From the NCBI GenBank assembly GCA_947449835.1, contig CANFSZ010000005.1, positions 5,812-69,811 of the forward strand: DNA of 64,000 nucleotides, given 5' to 3'. Source of the DNA: Opitutia bacterium. Its GTDB lineage: Bacteria; Verrucomicrobiota; Verrucomicrobiia; Opitutales; Opitutaceae. Positions 1,259 through 58,718 of the stretch are shown piece after piece. How positions within the stretch are numbered: position 1 is the stretch's first letter; each line of letters begins with the position of its first letter. Under the pieces are notes generated by a model. That model saw nothing but the letters and a program-made list of their open reading frames with translations. It ran no database searches and had not been told where the DNA came from. Both the position numbers and the translations under genes were made by a program.

Positions 1259-1300
1259 GGTTGGCGGGTGACGGGTTCGGGGCGCTACCTTGCCGGTCCC

Positions 1301-2611
1301 ATGGCCACGTTCCAGACCCTGCCCGGTTTCCGCGAGTTCTATCCCGAAGATCTTTCCCGCCGGAATCACATCTTCCGTCTCTGGCGTCAGACCGCCGGCG
1401 CTTATGGGTTTGCCGAATACGACGCGCCCGTGCTTGAGCCGCTCGATCTTTATAAAACCAAGTCCGGCGACGAAATCGAAGGCCAACTTTTCAGTTTCAC
1501 CGACAAAGGCGGCCGCGAAGTCGCCCTCCGGCCCGAGATGACTCCGACCGTGTGCCGGCTCGTCGGCGCCAAAGCCAGCGCCCTCAAGCGCCCGATCAAG
1601 TGGTACAGCATCGCCGAATTTTACCGCTACGAGCGCATGCAAAAAGGCCGCGGGCGCTGCTTCTTTCAGTTCAACGCCGATATTTTCGGCGAACCCGGCC
1701 CCGAGGCGGAGATCGAGCTGATCGCGCTTTTGACCCAATGTCTGTGCAGTTTCGGCCTCACCGAGCAGGATTTTTACGTGCGCCTGAGCGACCGGAATCT
1801 GTGGTTTTATTATCTCGAAGCACTCGGGCTCGACGAAGCGCGCATCCGCGCCGTGTTGGGCGCCGTTGATAAATTCGAAAAAATGGGCGACGACGCCTTC
1901 AAGGCCTACGCGGAGCAATTCGGCGAATTGGAAGCCGGCCTCAAAGCCAAGGTGCTCGAGTTTCTCCAAATCAAATCGTTGCCGGCGCTGGAAGCGGTGC
2001 TCGCGCCCATCGGCGGCGAGAAACTCGCGGCGCGTTTGGGCGATTGGCGGAAACTCCTTGGCGGCCTCGCCGCGATGGGGCTGGAGCGCTTCGTCGAAGT
2101 CGATCTCGGGGTCGTGCGTGGTCTGGCGTATTACACGGGCTTCGTTTTCGAGGCGTTTGACCGTAAAGGCGAACTCCGCGCGCTGGCCGGCGGCGGGCGC
2201 TACGACGATCTCGTGCAAAAACTCGGCGGCCCGGCGTTACCGGCGGTGGGCTTTGCGATTGGCGATATGACGTTTGCGCTGCTGCTCGAACAGCGCGGTT
2301 TGATGCCGACGTTTGTGCAGGCGCCCGATATATATTGCGTGATCGGCGGCGAGGCGGAGCGGCGCGCGGCGTTTGCCGATATTCAAGCGCTGCGGGCGAT
2401 GGGCTATCGCGTCGATTATCCGCTCAAGGAAGTCGCGTTCGGGAAACAGTTCAAAACCGCTTCAGATTCCGGCGCTAAGTTGGCGCTCATTTACGGCGCC
2501 GAAGAATTAGCGAAGGGCATCGTGAAAATCCGCGACCTCGGTGATCGCACCGAGAGCGAAGTCGCCAGCGCCAACGTTGCGGCGACCGTGCGGGAATTTT
2601 TTACGACTTAA
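1301..2611 (+). CDS. hisS: Histidine--tRNA ligase
   Basis: Class II aaRS HisS blocks (GFREFYPED, LRPEMTPTVCR, YYTGFVFEAF, GGGRYDDL). Start moved to ATG 1301 (MATFQTLPGF) from the GTG at 1268. Confidence 0.95.
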   Translation: MATFQTLPGFREFYPEDLSRRNHIFRLWRQTAGAYGFAEYDAPVLEPLDLYKTKSGDEIEGQLFSFTDKGGREVALRPEMTPTVCRLVGAKASALKRPIKWYSIAEFYRYERMQKGRGRCFFQFNADIFGEPGPEAEIELIALLTQCLCSFGLTEQDFYVRLSDRNLWFYYLEALGLDEARIRAVLGAVDKFEKMGDDAFKAYAEQFGELEAGLKAKVLEFLQIKSLPALEAVLAPIGGEKLAARLGDWRKLLGGLAAMGLERFVEVDLGVVRGLAYYTGFVFEAFDRKGELRALAGGGRYDDLVQKLGGPALPAVGFAIGDMTFALLLEQRGLMPTFVQAPDIYCVIGGEAERRAAFADIQALRAMGYRVDYPLKEVAFGKQFKTASDSGAKLALIYGAEELAKGIVKIRDLGDRTESEVASANVAATVREFFTT

Positions 2612-2767
2612 AAAATAGCAGAAAGACGTGTCACAGGTGACTCCTACACGGCTTTAAAAAGTCTGTTTAAAGTGCGTTTGAGTTGCAGCTTATCTTGCTT
2701 AGGTGCGCCACTGTTTCTCGTGCATTCTCGGCCTCGTAATCCCAAGACAAAAGTCTGGCTAAAAATT

Positions 2768-3085
2768 TTACGGGTGAGGAGTGATTGCCACAATGGTCAA
2801 AACGGGCACGCGCTTTTTGCCTTCACCAGCATTTGGCCCATAATGGAAGAAGACGCGATACGCTCCGGGTGTTTTGTTTTGCGCGTAGGCCTCCCAGATT
2901 CGCTCGCCTTTGGCTCCTGCTAGGGAGCTGTATTCATGAGTCTTTAGGCTCGGGTGTTTGATGTTGGTCTCTAGCAATCCCAAAGTCTTACGCACCTGCT
3001 TAAGGAGGCCGATTTTAGCCGGATTAGTCTCAAGGGCTAACAGTTGTTCATCCGCCTCATCGGTGAAAATTAACTCCCTTTGCAT
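2768..3085 (-). CDS. Type II toxin, RelE/ParE superfamily-like
   Basis: 105 aa, located 4 nt downstream of a small antitoxin-like ORF. C-terminal pattern GAYRVFFHYGP...VLTIVAITPHP resembles the RelE/ParE fold. Lies in the AT-rich islet. Confidence 0.6.
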   Translation of the reverse strand: MQRELIFTDEADEQLLALETNPAKIGLLKQVRKTLGLLETNIKHPSLKTHEYSSLAGAKGERIWEAYAQNKTPGAYRVFFHYGPNAGEGKKRVPVLTIVAITPHP

Positions 3086-3088
3086 GAA

Positions 3089-3385
3089 TCAATCCTCCTT
3101 GGCGTAAGTTGCGAAGGAGCCACGTTTCTTGGTGCGACCAGTAGCTGATTGGGCGAGACCTCGTTTAACTGAAGCAAGGGCTGGTTTGTTTTCGTAAAGC
3201 CAAGTTTCATACACGGGCACGGCTTTCACGGGATCGAGCATGATTTGTCCGATTTGGTTGCGGTAGATGTTGTAAGCAACTCCAGCTTGAGCTGCGGCTG
3301 ACCCTAGGCTGAGACGCTTTTTGGCGTCGGGTTTGATGATTTCATTGATCAACTCGAAATGGGTGCCTTTGAAGAAAATACTCAT
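3089..3385 (-). CDS. Type II antitoxin, AbrB/SpoVT(MazE)-like
   Basis: 98 aa, upstream of and nearly abutting the toxin. N-terminal swapped-hairpin-like segment (IIKPDAKKRLSLG) and a basic C-terminus. Confidence 0.55.
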   Translation of the reverse strand: MSIFFKGTHFELINEIIKPDAKKRLSLGSAAAQAGVAYNIYRNQIGQIMLDPVKAVPVYETWLYENKPALASVKRGLAQSATGRTKKRGSFATYAKED

Positions 3386-3420
3386 AGTGAAGTTAACTTG
3401 ATCTGTTCCCCTAAAGACAC

Positions 3421-3444
3421 AAGTGGGATAATCCCACTTTTTTC
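3421..3444. promoter_or_regulatory. Perfect 8-3-8 palindrome plus T-run; candidate TA operator or terminator
   Basis: aagtggga-taa-tcccactt followed by tttttt. Sits 36 nt upstream of the antitoxin ATG and downstream of the ABC ATPase stop. Confidence 0.4.
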
Positions 3445-3621
3445 AGAAAACCTCCACAAGGAGTTCAGGGACTTCTCAGGCTAAAGATGAGTGAATTTTT
3501 AACATCGCTATCACCGTCTGAGCGGTGCGCTTTCTTCGCTCCCCTTCTCTTTGATACTATGATGCAAAAATCAAAGCTCCTACGGTCGATGTACTTCTTT
3601 CGAATCAAACACTCACGTCGA

Positions 3622-46771: not shown

Positions 46772-46980
46772 TGGGTGGAGTGGGGTAAACTGAGCCGACG
46801 AAAAGCGAGCAGGCTCGGCGTGCGGTGGCGAGGGTTTTACTTAAGAACGGCGGTATGTGCTCAGATGGATGGTGTCCGCGACGCCGGAGGATTAAGTGTT
46901 GGGCCGAGATTCACGAGGTTACTTCGCCAACCGCGTTCACCGTAGTGGAGCAAGCGGAGGTTGCTGCTTCGAGCGGACGC

Positions 46981-48163: not shown

Positions 48164-48643
48164 GTGAACACGATTATCCCCAGCATAAAAAAAACCCGCG
48201 GCGTCGTTTGGTTTTGGACTTCGCTCGCGTTGATTGGTTTGAGTTCCACACCGGTATCGGCGTTGCCCCGCGCTATCACGCTCGAAGCGATTCATCAGAT
48301 TGAAAATCCCCGCGATTTGAAACGGCCTGGGCCGTGTGGTGAACTGGGTGCGTATCAATTTCGCGCGGAAACGTGGTCGCAACATACGCAGCGTCCATTT
48401 GCTGATGCCTTGGATCGGCGCTGTTCGGATCATGTGGCCGCGCAGCACTATAATTGGATATGCGAACGTTTGGTGAAAAATGGGCTAGAGCCTTCAGTCT
48501 ATAACGTCGCGCTGGCGTGGAACGCCGGTCTTTACGCAACCCTACGCGGACGCGCGCCGCGCCGCAGTCACGACTACGCGATGCGCGTGGGCAACATCGC
48601 TTCCGATCTGCATATCCGCACGCAAGCCCTCGCGTCGCGTTGA
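48164..48643 (+). CDS. Secreted lytic-transglycosylase (SLT)-like small protein
   Basis: Signal-like N-terminus. IHQIENP...GELGAYQFRAETW resembles the SLT catalytic Glu block. GTG start. Confidence 0.5.
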   Translation: MNTIIPSIKKTRGVVWFWTSLALIGLSSTPVSALPRAITLEAIHQIENPRDLKRPGPCGELGAYQFRAETWSQHTQRPFADALDRRCSDHVAAQHYNWICERLVKNGLEPSVYNVALAWNAGLYATLRGRAPRRSHDYAMRVGNIASDLHIRTQALASR

Positions 48644-49092
48644 GCGCACTAGGTCGAGATCTAGTGGCGAACCGTTTAAGGTCTGCGGGCGGCTGAAGTT
48701 GTCAGTCGCCCGCTGCATGTTTCTGTCTGAATTCGGGAAGCGCTAATTGCTTTGGAATGTCACGCTTCATGGGTTCTTCGTCGTGGGGTGGCCTCGATAA
48801 ATTTTTCCACGCTCGTGCTTCTGATGATGGTGCTTTAATCTGCATCACCCGTTTGGCCTACGCTTATGAGGCCTGCGTGATCAAGGCGACAGGGGTGGCC
48901 TAAATGACGCTCGCCGGTGGTAGCGCGGTGATTCGGTTCGCGGTAAATTCTTTGATTCCCAAGGGCGCCAGTGTGACAACGGGGGTTGGCTCTGAGCTGA
49001 CGATAGAGACATTGCCGGGCGCCATCGTTACGGTTAACCCTACATCGACTTTAGTGGGGGAAAAACTATAGCTGGTCAAAAACGGCGATGTC

Positions 49093-49488
49093 ATGACCGA
49101 GCAGACGGTCACGTTGAATTTAAAACTGGGTAAAGTGCTTTCCACGCTGGATACTGCGCGAAAGCCGATCAATCGCTACGGCGTGCGTACGCCCAAAGGC
49201 GTCGCGGCGGCGCGTGGGACGGTTTATGCCGTCCGCGTCGATGTCATGGGCTATTCGATCGCGACGTTGAGTGGGCAGGTCACGCTCGATCTTGGTGACG
49301 GCAGGAGTTTGTCGATTCCCGTCGGGACATCTTCGGTGAATGGTGCGGCTACGACTACGTTGGCCGCGGCGATCGCATCGAATCCCGCGCTCGCTCAGGA
49401 CATCGCGACGGCAGTCTCGGTCGTCGCCGCGCAGGTCTCGATGCGCTCGAGCCTAGTAGAAACGTCCGCTTCGGCCTTGGCCGTGTAG
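49093..49488 (+). CDS. FecR-domain fragment (longest intact ORF of the interrupted gene)
   Basis: YGVRTPKGVAAARGTVYAVRVD matches the FecR-family V.TP...v.vrGT.F.V block. Confidence 0.5.
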   Translation: MTEQTVTLNLKLGKVLSTLDTARKPINRYGVRTPKGVAAARGTVYAVRVDVMGYSIATLSGQVTLDLGDGRSLSIPVGTSSVNGAATTTLAAAIASNPALAQDIATAVSVVAAQVSMRSSLVETSASALAV

Positions 49489-49542
49489 GCTTCGGTTTTG
49501 AATGCGGCCTCGGCGGCCTTGCTGTAGCAGGCGGCGAATTTC

Positions 49543-49920
49543 ATGCAGCAGGCGATTCAAGAGGTTGCTACGCCGACCTCAGCCGTCTTTGGCGCGGCGA
49601 CGGGCGACGCGGTGGCGACGCTCACTGAGGTCGCCGTGCAAGGCGCGGTGCAAACATTGAGTGCTGTGAATCCGGCCGCCGCGCAGCAAGTCACCGGTGC
49701 GATTACGAATGTGGCGGTTGCGACGGCCGCGAGTTCGGGCATCGAAGTGAATGTGGAAGCGATCCAAAACGCCGCGGCTAAGGGCGCGGCCTCCGGTGCA
49801 GCTAATGCAACTGCTCCGGCTTCAAACCCCGACCAGCAGAACGCGAATTCTGTCGCACCGAAATCTACGCCTAGGCAGATCAACCCGATCGATCCTTCGG
49901 TGGTCAGTCCTTTAACTTGA
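49543..49920 (+). CDS. Ala/Gln-rich C-terminal fragment of the interrupted gene
   Basis: In the same frame as 49093-49488. Low-complexity Ala-rich sequence ending ...INPIDPSVVSPLT. Confidence 0.4.
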   Translation: MQQAIQEVATPTSAVFGAATGDAVATLTEVAVQGAVQTLSAVNPAAAQQVTGAITNVAVATAASSGIEVNVEAIQNAAAKGAASGAANATAPASNPDQQNANSVAPKSTPRQINPIDPSVVSPLT

Positions 49921-50058
49921 CGGTGCTTTTTTACTGCTGAGTTTAGCGAGGCGATGACCCGTTACTGGAACTCGAAAACAATTTTCGGGGCCCGGTGATC
50001 TATACCGGCTCAGCTTGGCTGACCAACCAAGGCAGAAGGGGGCGCGGGATTTTAAGAT

Positions 50059-51087
50059 TTATTCCAAAAACGAAGCTTGTTTTGGCGCGAGGGCGGCGGC
50101 GCGGCGCGCTGCTTCCTCCTCGGGCGAAGCGTTGAGGTGGCGGGGCGGACGCGAGGCTTTGGCGGCGACGGCGGCTTCACGGTCCGTGACGATGCGGTCG
50201 CAGATTTGGTGAATGTGCATGCGCAGCCACTGTGTGGTGCTGCTCTGGGCCGTGTAATCGGCGGGGCCGTAATGATCGATGCGGCCGACTTGGCGGAGGC
50301 GGTCGTTTTGCGCGAATTCCTCGGGCTTCGCTGGATTGTACACGCCGAAGGATTTGCCGCCATTACCTTTGACCACGGAGAAACTCGGCACATCGCTCGG
50401 ACCGTCGGCGATGTAGATCATGTTTTGAAACGGAATGCGGCGATCTTCCTCGGCCATCTTGGAATTTACGTCGATGGCTGGATTTTTATTCGTACCTTTG
50501 TTGATCTCAAAAATAGCGCGGGTCTTGGTGGTGTTGTCGATGACCATACCGATTTGTGCGATCTCGGCGGCGGCGTCGAGGGAGAGTTCTTTTTGCCGCA
50601 GGAAACCCGGTTGCAGCGGATTTTCGATGAATTCGCAGGCCCAAATGCCGTCGACGAGCGGGGCAATCGCGCTTCCCCGTACCATCTCGGCCAATCCGGT
50701 GCTCACAATGTAATGTTCGAGCGAAATTTCGTGTTTTTGATATTCGGGGCGCTCGCTGACGAATGATTTGGCGCGGTCAAAAAAATCGGGCAGGCCGGGA
50801 TAGAAACCGATTTCGCGACCGCTCGCGCGGAGTTTCTCGTTGTTGAGCCCTGCCATGGGTCCAGCGAGGACGTAAGTGAGAAGATGGTTTAGGTAACTGA
50901 TCTCGGGGGAGAGATGGTAGCCGCGTTTTTTATAGTGGCCGACGAGGGCGTTGGTCTCGCCCCAAAACGTGGCTTCGTCGATGCCGTAGCGCCTAAATAG
51001 AGGCGACTGCATGTATTCGGGGATTAAGGTCTTGTCGAAATCCCAGATGCAGGCGATGATGTTTTGAGTGAAGAGCGTCGTGGCCAT
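50059..51087 (-). CDS. HAD superfamily hydrolase
   Basis: Motif I CIWDFDKTL (DxDxT) and motif IV-like IYIADGPSDVPSF. 342 aa with an Ala/Arg-rich tail. Confidence 0.7.
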   Translation of the reverse strand: MATTLFTQNIIACIWDFDKTLIPEYMQSPLFRRYGIDEATFWGETNALVGHYKKRGYHLSPEISYLNHLLTYVLAGPMAGLNNEKLRASGREIGFYPGLPDFFDRAKSFVSERPEYQKHEISLEHYIVSTGLAEMVRGSAIAPLVDGIWACEFIENPLQPGFLRQKELSLDAAAEIAQIGMVIDNTTKTRAIFEINKGTNKNPAIDVNSKMAEEDRRIPFQNMIYIADGPSDVPSFSVVKGNGGKSFGVYNPAKPEEFAQNDRLRQVGRIDHYGPADYTAQSSTTQWLRMHIHQICDRIVTDREAAVAAKASRPPRHLNASPEEEAARRAAALAPKQASFLE

Positions 51088-51200: not shown

Positions 51201-52322
51201 ATGGATTCCCTGCCTGATATCGCTCCCTTTCAACGCCGCCTCGATGAACTCGATGCGCAAATGGCGGAGCCAAGTTTTTACGCTCACTCGCGGCGTGCCG
51301 CTGAAATAATGCGCGAGCATCAGAAATTACAAAAACTCGTGGCCGATTTCCGACTCCACGAGCGCATCGAACGCGAAATGATCGAAGCCACAGATTTGAG
51401 CCGCGATGCCCAGGCCGACCCAGAAATGCGTAATCTCGCCGCCGCCGAGTTGCCCGAGTTACAACGCCGCGCCGCGGAATTACGGGAAGTCGTTTTACTG
51501 GCGATGATCCCGCCCGAGCCGACGGATTCGCGTAATACTATTATGGAAATTCGCGCCGGAACGGGCGGCGAGGAAGCGGCGCTTTTCGCCGCAGAGTTGA
51601 CCCGCGTTTATCACCGCTACGCGGATGCGCAGGGTTGGAAAATCCAGCCGATGAGCACGAGCTACTCCGAACGTGGCGGTTTCCGAGAAACCATTTTTCT
51701 CATCACCGGAACAGATGTTTACAAACAACTGAAATTTGAAAGTGGCGTTCAACGCGTGAAACGCGTGCCCGTCACCGAGTCTAGCGGTCGCATCCACACA
51801 TCGACTGTTACGGTTGCCGTGTTGCCCGAGGCCGAAGAAGTCGACGTGGTCGTCGATCCGCAAGATCTCGAAATCACAGTCGCCCGGGCGAGTGGACCCG
51901 GCGGACAAGGCGTGAATACGACGGATTCAGCGGTTCAGATTCTTCATAAACCTACAGGCCTTATCGTCACCTGCGCCGACGAACGCTCGCAGATTAAAAA
52001 TAAAGCCAAGGCGATGACGGTCTTGCGCTCACGGCTCCTCCAGCGCCGCCAAGACGAAGAGCACGCCAAATACGCGGCCGTGCGACGCAACCAAATCGGT
52101 TCTGGCGACCGTAGCGAACGCATCCGCACGTACCATTTTCTCCAGAATCGTGTCACCGAGCATCGTATCGGGCTCACGCTTTACAGCCTGCCGCAAGTGA
52201 TGGAAGGCAAGATCGACGAGATAATCGCCGCGCTCCAAAAAGCGGATTATCAAGCCAAGCTCGCGACGCTGACCGGACATACCTTCGAGCCTCACCGCGC
52301 CCACAACGACGACGAAGATTAA
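51201..52322 (+). CDS. prfA: Peptide chain release factor 1
   Basis: RF1 codon-recognition tripeptide PVT (RVPVTESSGRIHTS) and the GGQ motif (SGPGGQGVNTTDSAV). Confidence 0.95.
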   Translation: MDSLPDIAPFQRRLDELDAQMAEPSFYAHSRRAAEIMREHQKLQKLVADFRLHERIEREMIEATDLSRDAQADPEMRNLAAAELPELQRRAAELREVVLLAMIPPEPTDSRNTIMEIRAGTGGEEAALFAAELTRVYHRYADAQGWKIQPMSTSYSERGGFRETIFLITGTDVYKQLKFESGVQRVKRVPVTESSGRIHTSTVTVAVLPEAEEVDVVVDPQDLEITVARASGPGGQGVNTTDSAVQILHKPTGLIVTCADERSQIKNKAKAMTVLRSRLLQRRQDEEHAKYAAVRRNQIGSGDRSERIRTYHFLQNRVTEHRIGLTLYSLPQVMEGKIDEIIAALQKADYQAKLATLTGHTFEPHRAHNDDED

Positions 52323-52323
52323 T

Positions 52324-53187
52324 ATGCCCTCTGTTTTAGAAATTATTCAGAAATCGTCGGAGTTTTTATCGGCCCGTGGCGTCGAATCGCCGCGTTTAAA
52401 TGCCGAACTGCTCATCGGCCACGCCCTCGAATTGAAGCGGATGCAGCTTTATTTGCAGTTTGAGCGTGTGCTGACGGAGCCGGAATTGGAAAAAATCCGC
52501 CCGCTCGTGAAGCGCCGTTCACAGCGGGAACCGCTGCAATACATCATCGGCACGGTTGAATTCGGTGGACTAAAATTAAAGGTTGATCGGCGGGCGTTGA
52601 TTCCTCGTCCGGAGACCGAACTGTTGATCGAAAAAATTGTTGGGCTTTGCTTGCAACTGCCCCAGAGCGTGTTGGACCTCGGAACCGGAACGGGCGCCAT
52701 CGCTTTGGCGCTCGCTAAGGCGTTTTCAGAAGCGCGGGTCACGGCGGTTGATGTGAGTGAAGAGGCTTTGGCCTTGGCTGAGGAAAATGTACTCGCGTCT
52801 GGCTTCGGCCCGCGGGTGCGTTTGGTAAACTCCGCGTGGTTTAAGGAGCTCCAGCCCGAAGATCGCTTTGAGTTAATTGTCTCGAATCCACCTTATCTCA
52901 CCGACGCAGAGACCGACGCGGCTGCGCCTGAGGTGCGTGGTCATGAGCCCCGCTCGGCGCTGGTCGGCGGTCTCGATGGGCTGGTGGATTTACGCGAGAT
53001 CATCAGCGCGGCCTCGCCGTTTTTGGCGCCGGGCGGTCTGCTGGCATTGGAGACGGGCATCGCCCAACATGCCGAATTGATGACGCTCGCCGCCGCGCAC
53101 GGCTTTGTGCGGATTGAATCAGGCCGCGATTTGACCGGCCGCGATCGTTTTATTTTTGCATGGAAACCTGGCGCTCCTGGCGCTTGA
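52324..53187 (+). CDS. prmC: Release-factor glutamine N5-methyltransferase PrmC (HemK)
   Basis: VLDLGTGTGAIAL SAM motif and NPPY catalytic motif. Lies immediately downstream of prfA. Confidence 0.92.
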   Translation: MPSVLEIIQKSSEFLSARGVESPRLNAELLIGHALELKRMQLYLQFERVLTEPELEKIRPLVKRRSQREPLQYIIGTVEFGGLKLKVDRRALIPRPETELLIEKIVGLCLQLPQSVLDLGTGTGAIALALAKAFSEARVTAVDVSEEALALAEENVLASGFGPRVRLVNSAWFKELQPEDRFELIVSNPPYLTDAETDAAAPEVRGHEPRSALVGGLDGLVDLREIISAASPFLAPGGLLALETGIAQHAELMTLAAAHGFVRIESGRDLTGRDRFIFAWKPGAPGA

Positions 53188-56873: not shown

Positions 56874-58718
56874 ATGCGAGCTCTACGACTTTCTATTTTA
56901 TCCGCCTTTGTTGTTTTGGGTTCGGTGCTGGGCTTTGCGCAGGACGGGCCCGCGGTGCTGGCGGAGGTGCGGGTATTCTCGGATCGAATCGCTAATCAGG
57001 CCTCGGCGGGGTCCTTCGCCATGCCGGTCTCGGCGTTGCGTTTTGAACCGCAGGTCGATGTGCAGACGCGTAATCTCGGTGAGGCGCAAGCCGACCTCAC
57101 CATCCGTGGCGGCACGTTTGAATCGGTTGGCGTTAAATTAGGCGGCATCTCTTTGAGCGATCCACAAACGGGTCACTACCTGGCCGAAATCCCCGTCGCT
57201 CTCGACATGTTGGCCACTTCGAAAATTGTTACGGGCGCGGCCCTTGCCTTGGCCGCGACCAATGCGACCTCGGGTGCGGTCGCTTACACGTGGCGACCCA
57301 TTACGGCAGGAGGAGTGGCGCAGGTGACGATTGGTGACGGGCAACTTTTCAGCACTACATGGTATCAAGCGATGGTCGCGCCCGCGCGATTTGGGCAAAC
57401 CCGACTTGGCGCCGATGTTGCACTCGCGCACTCAACCAGCGAGGGACTATTGCCGGATGCGGACCATGCATTTGCCCGGGTCAATGTACGGTTGCAGGCC
57501 GTCAGCTCTGCGAGCCAAACAGATGTTTTTGCTGGGTACCAAAGTAAGCAGTTTGGTTGGCGGAATTTGTACACGCCATTCCAGTCTCCGGAATCTGAAA
57601 ACCTGCAAACATTGCTCTTTGCGCTAAATCATCGCGCAGGTTTGCCAGGCGGTGATTATTTAGAGTCAGCGGTTTTTTATCGGCGCAACAAAGATGACTA
57701 CGCCTACAATCGTTACGCTGCGCTGAGCGCGATTCATCCCTTTCAACATACGACGTGGCTGAGCGGGGCGGCGCTTTCAGGGCGACGCACCATGGATGAC
57801 TTTGTGGCTGATTTTCGCGCTGAACTGTGGGCGGACGAAATTGAATCCACTTCGCTGCTCTTTGGCCGTTATCAGACACGCACGTTGGCCAAGGCCTCAC
57901 TCGCCGCGGAGAAATTTTGGATGACGGGTCGCGCGGGACGCGTATCGGCCAAAGTGGGCGCCACTTTGGATGATTCAAATCGTTTTTTATCAGCGGTTTC
58001 TCCTGTAATCGAGTTGGCGCGTGAATGGAGCGCTGCTGCGGTGTCGCGCTTGTGGTTGAGTTTTTCAAGGGCCACGCAGGTGCCGAGTTATACGGCGCTC
58101 AATTCGAATCCTAGCGCCGGTCTATTTCGTGGTAACGCTGCGCTTGGGCGTGAGCGTACGGCTAACTTCGAGTTGGGTATCTCTGGTGGTCGCGCGGGTT
58201 GGACGGGCGACGCCGTTCTTTTTTACCGGGCCGATTCCGATTTAGTCGATTGGACTTATCGCCGGGGCGTTACGGCTCGCTCGGCCAATGCCGTAAACTT
58301 GGCCACTTCCGGTTTGGAGTTGGTGGCGCGGCGAAGTTGGGCGCAGGCGGATGTGATCATCGGATTCAACGCCCTAGCGAAAACCGCTGATTATCGCGGT
58401 GCGGCGATTGACGCCAGTTTCTATGCGTTGAATTACGCGCGGTATCGCCTAACGGCAGCCCTCGTTTACCGCTTCAATCGTGAATGGGAATTACGCCTCG
58501 ATAATGCCGCGCGCCTGCAAGCGGACAACGCGCTTCGGCTCATTGGCGGGGATGAAACGTTGATCAGCTCATGCGGCATATCGTACCGCCCGCGTGCGTT
58601 TGCGCACACGCGCGTGACGTTGAGAGCGGATAATGTCTGGAATAGTAATTATCAAGAAGTGCCAGCGGTCACGGCGGCCCCACGGCTTATTTCAATCGCG
58701 CTGACGTACGGTTGGTGA
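56874..58718 (+). CDS. TonB-dependent outer-membrane receptor
   Basis: Signal peptide from ATG 56874. Plug-domain blocks (DLTIRGGTFESVGVKLGG). Beta-barrel ending in an aromatic residue (LTYGW). Confidence 0.82.
   Translation: MRALRLSILSAFVVLGSVLGFAQDGPAVLAEVRVFSDRIANQASAGSFAMPVSALRFEPQVDVQTRNLGEAQADLTIRGGTFESVGVKLGGISLSDPQTGHYLAEIPVALDMLATSKIVTGAALALAATNATSGAVAYTWRPITAGGVAQVTIGDGQLFSTTWYQAMVAPARFGQTRLGADVALAHSTSEGLLPDADHAFARVNVRLQAVSSASQTDVFAGYQSKQFGWRNLYTPFQSPESENLQTLLFALNHRAGLPGGDYLESAVFYRRNKDDYAYNRYAALSAIHPFQHTTWLSGAALSGRRTMDDFVADFRAELWADEIESTSLLFGRYQTRTLAKASLAAEKFWMTGRAGRVSAKVGATLDDSNRFLSAVSPVIELAREWSAAAVSRLWLSFSRATQVPSYTALNSNPSAGLFRGNAALGRERTANFELGISGGRAGWTGDAVLFYRADSDLVDWTYRRGVTARSANAVNLATSGLELVARRSWAQADVIIGFNALAKTADYRGAAIDASFYALNYARYRLTAALVYRFNREWELRLDNAARLQADNALRLIGGDETLISSCGISYRPRAFAHTRVTLRADNVWNSNYQEVPAVTAAPRLISIALTYGW

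Follow-up and report, generated by a model that had tools for sequence, protein, structure and literature searches.

A degenerate FecR-domain gene occupies positions 48797..49920 on the plus strand of a 64,000-nucleotide stretch of contig CANFSZ010000005.1 (hereafter the window; every search described as made in the window covers these 64 kb). Comparison with intact relatives indicates that this segment is very probably a unitary pseudogene, left by the decay of a gene that encoded a secreted periplasmic FecR-domain protein, lost its CHASE2 partner and degenerated under a mutational bias from GC to AT. The first-pass annotation of the locus had described a frame of 388 codons at 48757..49920, punctuated by TAA at 48901 and TAG at 49069, 49486 and 49525 and closed by TGA at 49918, and had offered two readings of it: a very young pseudogene created by point nonsense changes only, or a gene whose expression depends on amber read-through or suppression. 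Retranslation agrees with that frame, as it does with the bases C, G and C that were listed 3' of the three TAG codons. The relic is an ordinary pseudogene, and the recoding idea is not supported. The segments on which this account is built are as follows.

48797..49920, plus strand: the FecR relic, remnant of a 374-codon gene (DNA alignment to positions 693..1817 of contig L001; protein alignments to P0001-P0010 and P0061-P0073)
48757..48796, plus strand: the ATG and first 13 codons of the frame described earlier, a 5' leader in which the intact-allele frame reads MSRFLGS-stop
48973..49281, plus strand: FecR domain (PF04773) as conceptually translated, broken by the TAG at 49069

Disabling lesions and the reality of the stops

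The reference for the lesions was L001, the contig encoding the intact protein P0001, which is 92% identical to the window in DNA sequence over 1.9 kb (BLAST). Codon-by-codon alignment to L001 reveals seven disabling lesions in all, namely loss of the start codon, a 1-bp deletion and five nonsense codons; three of these (the lost start, the TAA at 48836 and the deletion) were absent from the first-pass annotation.

48797..48799, plus strand: lesion 1, ancestral start ATG to ATA (codon table and alignment); the frame reads INFSTLVLL
48836..48838, plus strand: lesion 2, TTC (Phe14) to TAA in the ancestral frame, hidden in the 388-codon frame (alignment)
48841..48842, plus strand: lesion 3, 1-bp deletion, AGC to -GC, at codon 16 within the signal peptide (alignment)
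48901..48903, plus strand: lesion 4, GAA (Glu36) to TAA (alignment)
49069..49071, plus strand: lesion 5, CAG (Gln92) to TAG (alignment); Ala or Ser in more distant relatives
49486..49488, plus strand: lesion 6, TTG (Leu231) to TAG (alignment); Leu in every intact relative examined
49525..49527, plus strand: lesion 7, GAG (Glu244) to TAG (alignment)

From 48797 the ancestral frame reads I-N-F-S-T-L-V-L-L-M-M-V-L-stop, INFSTLVLLMMVL-stop, and the intact protein reads MNFSTRVLLVVVL. Lesion 3 shifts the ancestral frame into the 388-codon frame, so that upstream of the deletion after 48841 the latter is not the ancestral one, and the earlier statement that the 1.16 kb hold no indel or frameshift does not stand. 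Nor does the proposed start: because the intact-allele frame that begins at the equivalent of ATG 48757 closes after seven codons, this ATG is not the start of the gene; the intact gene opens at the equivalent of 48797. The ATG at 48904 does follow the TAA directly, as had been noticed, and corresponds to a conserved internal methionine (Met37) of the ancestral protein. The suggestion that the stops arose by CAG to TAG and CAA to TAA changes in a Gln-rich context holds for only one of the four stops then reported. The Glu36 site is occupied by E, Q or D in relatives and by E in 12/12 of the covering cluster alleles listed, and the Glu244 site by Ser, Asn, Thr or Ala in more distant relatives; the codon immediately before lesion 7 has itself changed, from CCG, encoding an outgroup-invariant proline, to CTG. 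With the TAG read through, the conceptual protein matches PF04773 over residues 73-175 (Pfam, 34.3 bits against a cutoff of 24, E 3.3e-8), a match that spans the TAG at 49069 and bears out the view that this codon splits a single FecR domain. The frame looks "held open" because its decay has consisted almost wholly of substitutions, with one indel.

The consequences are most severe at the N-terminus. The hydrophobic core of the intact signal peptide (VLLVVVLFFSI) is destroyed by the frameshift together with the TAA, and the best 11-residue Kyte-Doolittle window falls from 3.4 in the intact protein to 1.6-1.7 for either start in the window; no N-terminal signal peptide is found from either candidate start in the window. 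Since every possible start lacks a signal peptide, no product with the ancestral function would seem possible. The relic is a single copy in the window (tblastn), and a compensating paralogue was therefore rejected within that scope. Antisense or overlapping genes were likewise considered and set aside, as minus-strand open reading frames (ORFs) across the locus reach at most 108 residues and match no family.

That the stops are real is indicated by a second assembly, the 542-kb metagenome scaffold_10 of GROS21-1 (ENA ERZ19026195), to which exact protein matches of the region point and which is a record separate from the window. The two differ by 14 single nucleotide polymorphisms (SNPs) in one stretch of 20.4 kb and by 5 in another of 21 kb; over 48700..49950 the scaffold is 100% identical to the window, with every lesion included, the four stops first reported among them. 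Because two assemblies that are SNP-distinct elsewhere carry identical lesions, assembly error is excluded as their source. The notion that consensus errors in a metagenome produced the stops draws some encouragement from the nature of the source, which is a metagenome assembly, and from the related contig L084, in which an apparent "split gene" proved to be a run of N. Set against this are the complete identity across 48700..49950 of assemblies with 5-14 SNPs per ~20 kb, the fact that substitutions make up six of the seven lesions and that the sole deletion, present in both assemblies, lies outside any homopolymer run, and the intactness of the genes around the relic; an artefact is accordingly next to impossible. 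The annotation pipeline applied to scaffold_10 calls the relic as four fragments of 48, 55, 131 and 125 residues.

Intact relatives, selection and mutation

Protein searches identified an intact relative of 374 residues, P0001, at 89% identity and belonging to a cluster of 99 members, as well as nine further full-length relatives at 52-61% identity. Reading the orthologous codons at the four reported stops, a check suggested in the first-pass annotation, returns sense codons in all 14 of the sister-population alleles listed; specifically, the listed P0001-cluster alleles that cover the sites (drawn from NCBI, JGI, ENA and Logan) encode E, Q, L and E. Intact 374-codon alleles occur at the syntenic position in L001 and in L087-L089, the latter being sister-species contigs that are ~93-94% identical to the window. 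Related loci place the organism among the freshwater Opitutaceae (Verrucomicrobiota), and the nearest deposited genome is L005, a lake metagenome-assembled genome ("uncultured Opitutae bacterium Loc081215-1m_bin-0085", ~90-92% DNA identity), whose FecR allele is intact for its first 363 codons and is then ended by the contig edge. All of these intact alleles (L001, L005 and L087-L089) lie between the same 159-residue gene and the HAD-like and prfA genes. The former served as a neighbour control for divergence.

48164..48643, plus strand: conserved 159-residue gene, intact, no family match

Divergence from L001 amounts to 3.1% in this neighbour, compared with 8.5% in the relic. Divergence within the pseudogene is itself uneven: a tract of ~290 bp at 49166..49452 differs from L001 at one base, and its flanks differ by 8-10%. 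Recombination or gene conversion between lineages could account for both the low-divergence tract and the 3.1% neighbour, as could divergence that is merely uneven.

Selection was assessed by the method of Nei and Gojobori using the window, L001 and L005 alleles. The ratio of nonsynonymous to synonymous substitution rates (dN/dS) is 0.11-0.12 between L001 and L005, both intact, versus 0.30-0.32 between the window and L001 and 0.21-0.24 between the window and L005. Private substitutions at codon positions 1, 2 and 3 number 14, 13 and 29 in the window, compared with 4, 2 and 8 and with 3, 1 and 18 on the intact branches, such that the ratio of first plus second to third positions is 27:29 in the window versus 10:26 in the intact alleles. 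Nine window-specific changes (L61F, E69K, P133T, S166Y, L244stop, P256L, A269E, A292V and P361Q) fall at positions identical in 9/9 outgroups, whereas P0001 has one such change, and some 15 replacements in the window are found in none of the intact alleles listed. By these comparisons, selection on the broken copy is evidently relaxed in part, as expected from death part-way along the branch. Since the relic carries ~15 private replacements, with nine changes at outgroup-invariant positions, it is not very young, and its age as a pseudogene is best described as moderate. Of the first reading offered for the locus, then, the pseudogene itself survives; its extreme youth does not, and neither does its origin by nonsense changes alone, given the loss of the start and the frameshift.

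The substitution spectrum of the window branch is strongly skewed, with 46 GC to AT changes versus 17 AT to GC, including 25 C to T and 10 G to A. When this spectrum was applied to the intact sequence in simulations, the resulting nonsense codons were 65% TAG, 27% TAA and 8% TGA, and the three TAG and two TAA codons observed, with TGA absent, match what that distribution predicts. TAG predominates owing to the abundance in this gene of CAG, GAG, TTG and TCG codons, each of which is one step from TAG.

The CHASE2 partner and a proposed route to decay

The intact protein consists of a Sec-type signal peptide, the FecR domain, a beta-rich stretch, an Ala/Gln-rich tail and a Pro-rich C-terminus, and its only NCBIfam resemblance, to the Leptospira adhesin Lsa33, is weak and sub-threshold. 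When the cyclase of the syntenic relative L002 was used as a tblastn query, a gene of ~630 residues encoding a CHASE2-domain cyclase was found to adjoin the FecR gene in 56 related loci, usually directly upstream and on the same strand; in L002, 43 bp separate its end from the start of FecR. The same query finds no match in the 64-kb window, in L001 or in L005, and no CHASE2 gene is present among the called genes of the sister-species contigs L087-L089. The cyclase gene is missing beside the FecR gene in all sampled members of the genus to which the window belongs, and in the window its place is taken by a short spacer.

48644..48796, no strand assigned: spacer of ~150 bp in place of the CHASE2 cyclase gene (tblastn, L002 cyclase)

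These observations suggest a route by which the relic could have formed. The FecR-domain protein presumably works with the adjacent CHASE2 sensor, and the cyclase was already gone from this position in the ancestor that the members of the genus share. Loss of the cyclase probably made the FecR gene dispensable in the lineage of the window, where the orphaned gene then accumulated, under GC to AT-biased mutation, the start loss, the 1-bp frameshift, the five nonsense codons and many radical replacements. If so, the locus offers a small example of module decay, in which the cyclase is gone genus-wide at the locus and the FecR gene is dead in one species and kept in its sisters.

Several observations weigh against this account. 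In sister species the FecR gene has no cyclase beside it and is still maintained by purifying selection, and partner loss alone is therefore insufficient to explain the decay. The cyclase may have relocated elsewhere in the genome, and the sister species may differ from the window in other respects, for example by holding a copy of the cyclase elsewhere in their genomes. In addition, third codon positions hold about half of the substitutions on the window branch, which means that the gene stayed under constraint through much of that branch before dying. Lastly, five nonsense codons exceed the simulated mean, which is 1.2 with 40 neutral substitutions and 2.3 with 75, and the simulated probability of at least five nonsense codons is 0.007-0.075 depending on the number of neutral substitutions; this excess carries little weight because the locus was picked for its many stops.

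Amber codons as terminators, release factor 1 and the alternatives to pseudogenization

The possibility that TAG is decoded in this organism directs attention to how TAG is used as a stop. Terminators were counted for ORFs of at least 100 residues, with the same heuristic applied to 79 related Opitutaceae loci, and a codon-model gene caller biased to minus-strand genes was used only to recheck the counts. TAG ends none of the 54 window ORFs, the relic's own fragment excepted (TGA 31, TAA 24), and the second scheme likewise finds TAG at 0/48 in the window, as against 155 of 830 ORFs (18.7%) in the related loci and 4/18 called genes in L002. Two replacements are evident from comparison with L002: TAG to TAA in the HAD-like gene, whose stop lies at 50059, and TAG to TGA in a gene of 614 residues, whose stop lies at 58718. 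The pattern extends beyond the window, as none of ~70 non-redundant core genes sampled from the genus end in TAG, compared with ~19% in the family, and the core genes of contigs L083-L092 end in TAA or TGA. The few TAG terminators seen in the genus belong to accessory or mobile genes, namely one for an AbiEii toxin, a 161-residue insert gene, an ORF of 37 residues and three genes from a segment of L085 that is not syntenic; members of the genus therefore still employ TAG as a stop.

Two simple causes of this avoidance were rejected. TAG is not depleted globally, since the window holds 596 TAG trinucleotides versus 636 expected from its dinucleotide content, and the depletion is confined to terminators. 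GC content does not account for it either, in that relatives with less than 62% GC end ~18% of their ORFs in TAG (hand tally). TAG has been reported to be a universally suboptimal stop, independently of GC content (PMC3549826), and the avoidance of TAG in core genes fits unusually effective selection against this codon. That UAG termination is weak in the lineage, or that a suppressor tRNA is present, such that TAG is partially read through and the lineage is an intermediate toward freeing the amber codon, is an idea with a very slim chance of being correct; were it true, the three TAG codons of the relic would be a symptom of that state and not of simple decay. The near-complete avoidance of TAG terminators in the core genes of the genus is nonetheless the item of wider interest to emerge from the locus.

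The gene for release factor 1 (RF1), which reads UAG and UAA, lies 1.3 kb downstream of the relic and is followed directly by prmC.

51201..52322, plus strand: prfA (RF1), intact; Pfam PCRF and RF-1 domains
52324..53187, plus strand: prmC

The window RF1 matches that of E. coli at E 1e-94, retains the PVT and GGQ motifs and is encoded by a gene that is 100% identical in the second assembly. Its decoding motif reads VKRVPVT, compared with VQRVPAT in E. coli, and thus places Lys at the residue equivalent to E. coli Gln185 (Gln181 in Thermus), which hydrogen-bonds the stop codon's third nucleotide (PMC3974865). The Lys variant co-varies with an Asn to Ser change five residues after PVT and marks a subclade of 13 related loci, the ORFs of which are ~23% TAG-terminated, and on this ground it was rejected as the cause of TAG avoidance. 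As read from the alignments, the substitution is unexpected for a residue involved in decoding, and it does not explain the avoidance. A further change, Ala to Ser in the TE(A/S)SG stretch after PVT, is seen in the window RF1 alone.

Against this background, translation could be imagined to start at ATG 48904 and to yield a functional protein, the TAG codons being decoded by a suppressor tRNA, as pyrrolysine or through leaky termination. The terminator counts are what a suppressor-bearing genome would show, and the Lys of the window RF1 stands at a residue that contacts the third stop nucleotide; that same Lys, however, is common to relatives that use TAG as a terminator, TAG does close accessory genes within the genus, and the RF1 gene is both intact and conserved. 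In the relic itself, the TAG codons replace Gln, an invariant Leu and Glu, and insertion of any one residue could not suit all three sites. Two further stops in the relic are TAA, a protein begun at 48904 would be missing both its signal peptide and ~13 residues from the beginning of the mature domain, and selection on the copy is relaxed, with nine changes at outgroup-invariant positions. No other ORF split by an in-frame TAG exists in the 64-kb window, where gene lengths match those of L002 and L087 orthologues, and a candidate second TAG-interrupted gene in the genus, a GFO/IDH/MocA gene in L084, was discarded when the split was traced to a run of N at a scaffold gap. Scans for tRNA genes came up empty both in the window and in six related loci, only some of which belong to the genus of the window, and an Rfam scan of the window found no family. 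Amber read-through or suppression, the second reading offered in the first-pass annotation, thus founders on the three different residues replaced, the destroyed signal peptide and the intact RF1, and is extremely unlikely.

It might also be asked whether the pieces left between the stops have functions of their own, with, for instance, the 131-residue ORF at 49093..49488 or the Ala-rich 125-residue ORF at 49543..49920 expressed as a new small protein. Both open with ATG and are called as genes by the annotation pipeline, but the first of these starts arose by an Ile to Met change (49093) and the second was an internal methionine in the ancestral protein; the 131-residue piece holds only positions 39-96 of the 97 in the FecR profile, neither piece has a signal peptide, and the pattern of radical substitutions speaks against constraint. 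Function in these fragments is accordingly most improbable, and a unitary pseudogene remains the preferred account of the locus.

Gene order and other observations in the window

The order of the FecR gene, the HAD-like gene on the opposite strand, prfA and prmC is conserved across the Opitutaceae (~50 loci among L002-L082), and the RF1 gene lies 2-4 kb downstream of the FecR-domain gene in ~50 related loci.

Elsewhere, GC skew on the plus strand is positive in 30 of 32 bins of 2 kb, commonly +0.1 to +0.29, and rises almost monotonically when cumulated; as most genes of the first 35 kb nevertheless lie on the minus strand, their coding strands are therefore C-rich. At 46911..46954 the window is without an insert of ~1.1 kb that sister contigs carry (L087 7012..8148, L005 1936..3071) between the lactate permease and NIPSNAP genes; the insert holds the TAG-terminated gene of 161 residues, to which no function is assigned. 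Another variable spot, at 2612..3621, lies between hisS and an ABC-ATPase gene (compare L090 11939..14495 and L092 11880..12508), and is occupied in one relative by PIN/FitA and AbiEi/AbiEii toxin-antitoxin pairs and in the window by minus-strand ORFs at 2768..3085 and 3089..3385 without a family match. The 447-residue ORF at 1268..2611 has no exact protein match on record, probably owing to a different start in the public gene call.

Comparison with known systems

The nearest parallel to the ancestral arrangement is the Burkholderia "BiofilmReg" operon, in which a LysM and FecR protein adjoins a CHASE2 histidine kinase (PMC5192318). As in that pair, the ancestral Opitutaceae protein combines a signal peptide with a FecR domain and has a CHASE2 neighbour in the 56 loci noted above. 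The two differ in that the Opitutaceae partner is a CHASE2 cyclase and not a histidine kinase, in that an Ala/Gln-rich tail is found in place of LysM, and in that within the window the CHASE2 partner is absent and the FecR gene dead. Similarly, in S. meliloti the FecR-domain protein SMc02177 is described as one of the targets of Clr, in a study that also makes use of the CHASE2 cyclase CyaD1 (PMC5498481).

The relic also shares PF04773 with the FecR anti-sigma factor of E. coli, which acts in FecI/FecR/FecA iron-citrate signalling. Unlike E. coli FecR, the intact Opitutaceae protein has neither a cytoplasmic anti-sigma domain nor a transmembrane anchor, and instead carries a cleavable signal peptide. 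Consistent with this difference, FecR is the sole Pfam domain in the conceptual protein of the relic, and no gene for an extracytoplasmic function (ECF) sigma factor or a TonB-dependent receptor occurs near the relic, the neighbours being the 159-residue gene of unknown family, the HAD-like gene, prfA and prmC.

Natural amber recoding is exemplified by pyrrolysine in methylamine methyltransferase genes and by the reading of TAG as Gln in some phages. The relic resembles such cases in holding several in-frame TAG codons within a neighbourhood that is without TAG terminators. In natural recoding, however, the TAG codons either are conserved in position or correspond to one amino acid, and the recoding extends to other genes; the orthologues of the relic have three different sense codons at these sites, two of its stops are TAA, and no other gene is affected.

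The closest correspondence is with ordinary bacterial unitary pseudogenes, with which the relic shares syntenic intact orthologues, independent lesions, a raised dN/dS, changes at invariant residues and a GC to AT bias. It departs from them in having so far decayed almost wholly by substitution, with one 1-bp indel in 1.1 kb, such that a long pseudo-frame stays readable and resembles a recoded gene. The likeness carries a caution, namely that decay almost exclusively by substitution can leave a long readable frame that passes for recoding, and a remedy, in that a close intact allele resolves such a case at once; here it also exposed the lost start codon and the leader-peptide frameshift, neither of which is visible in one sequence.

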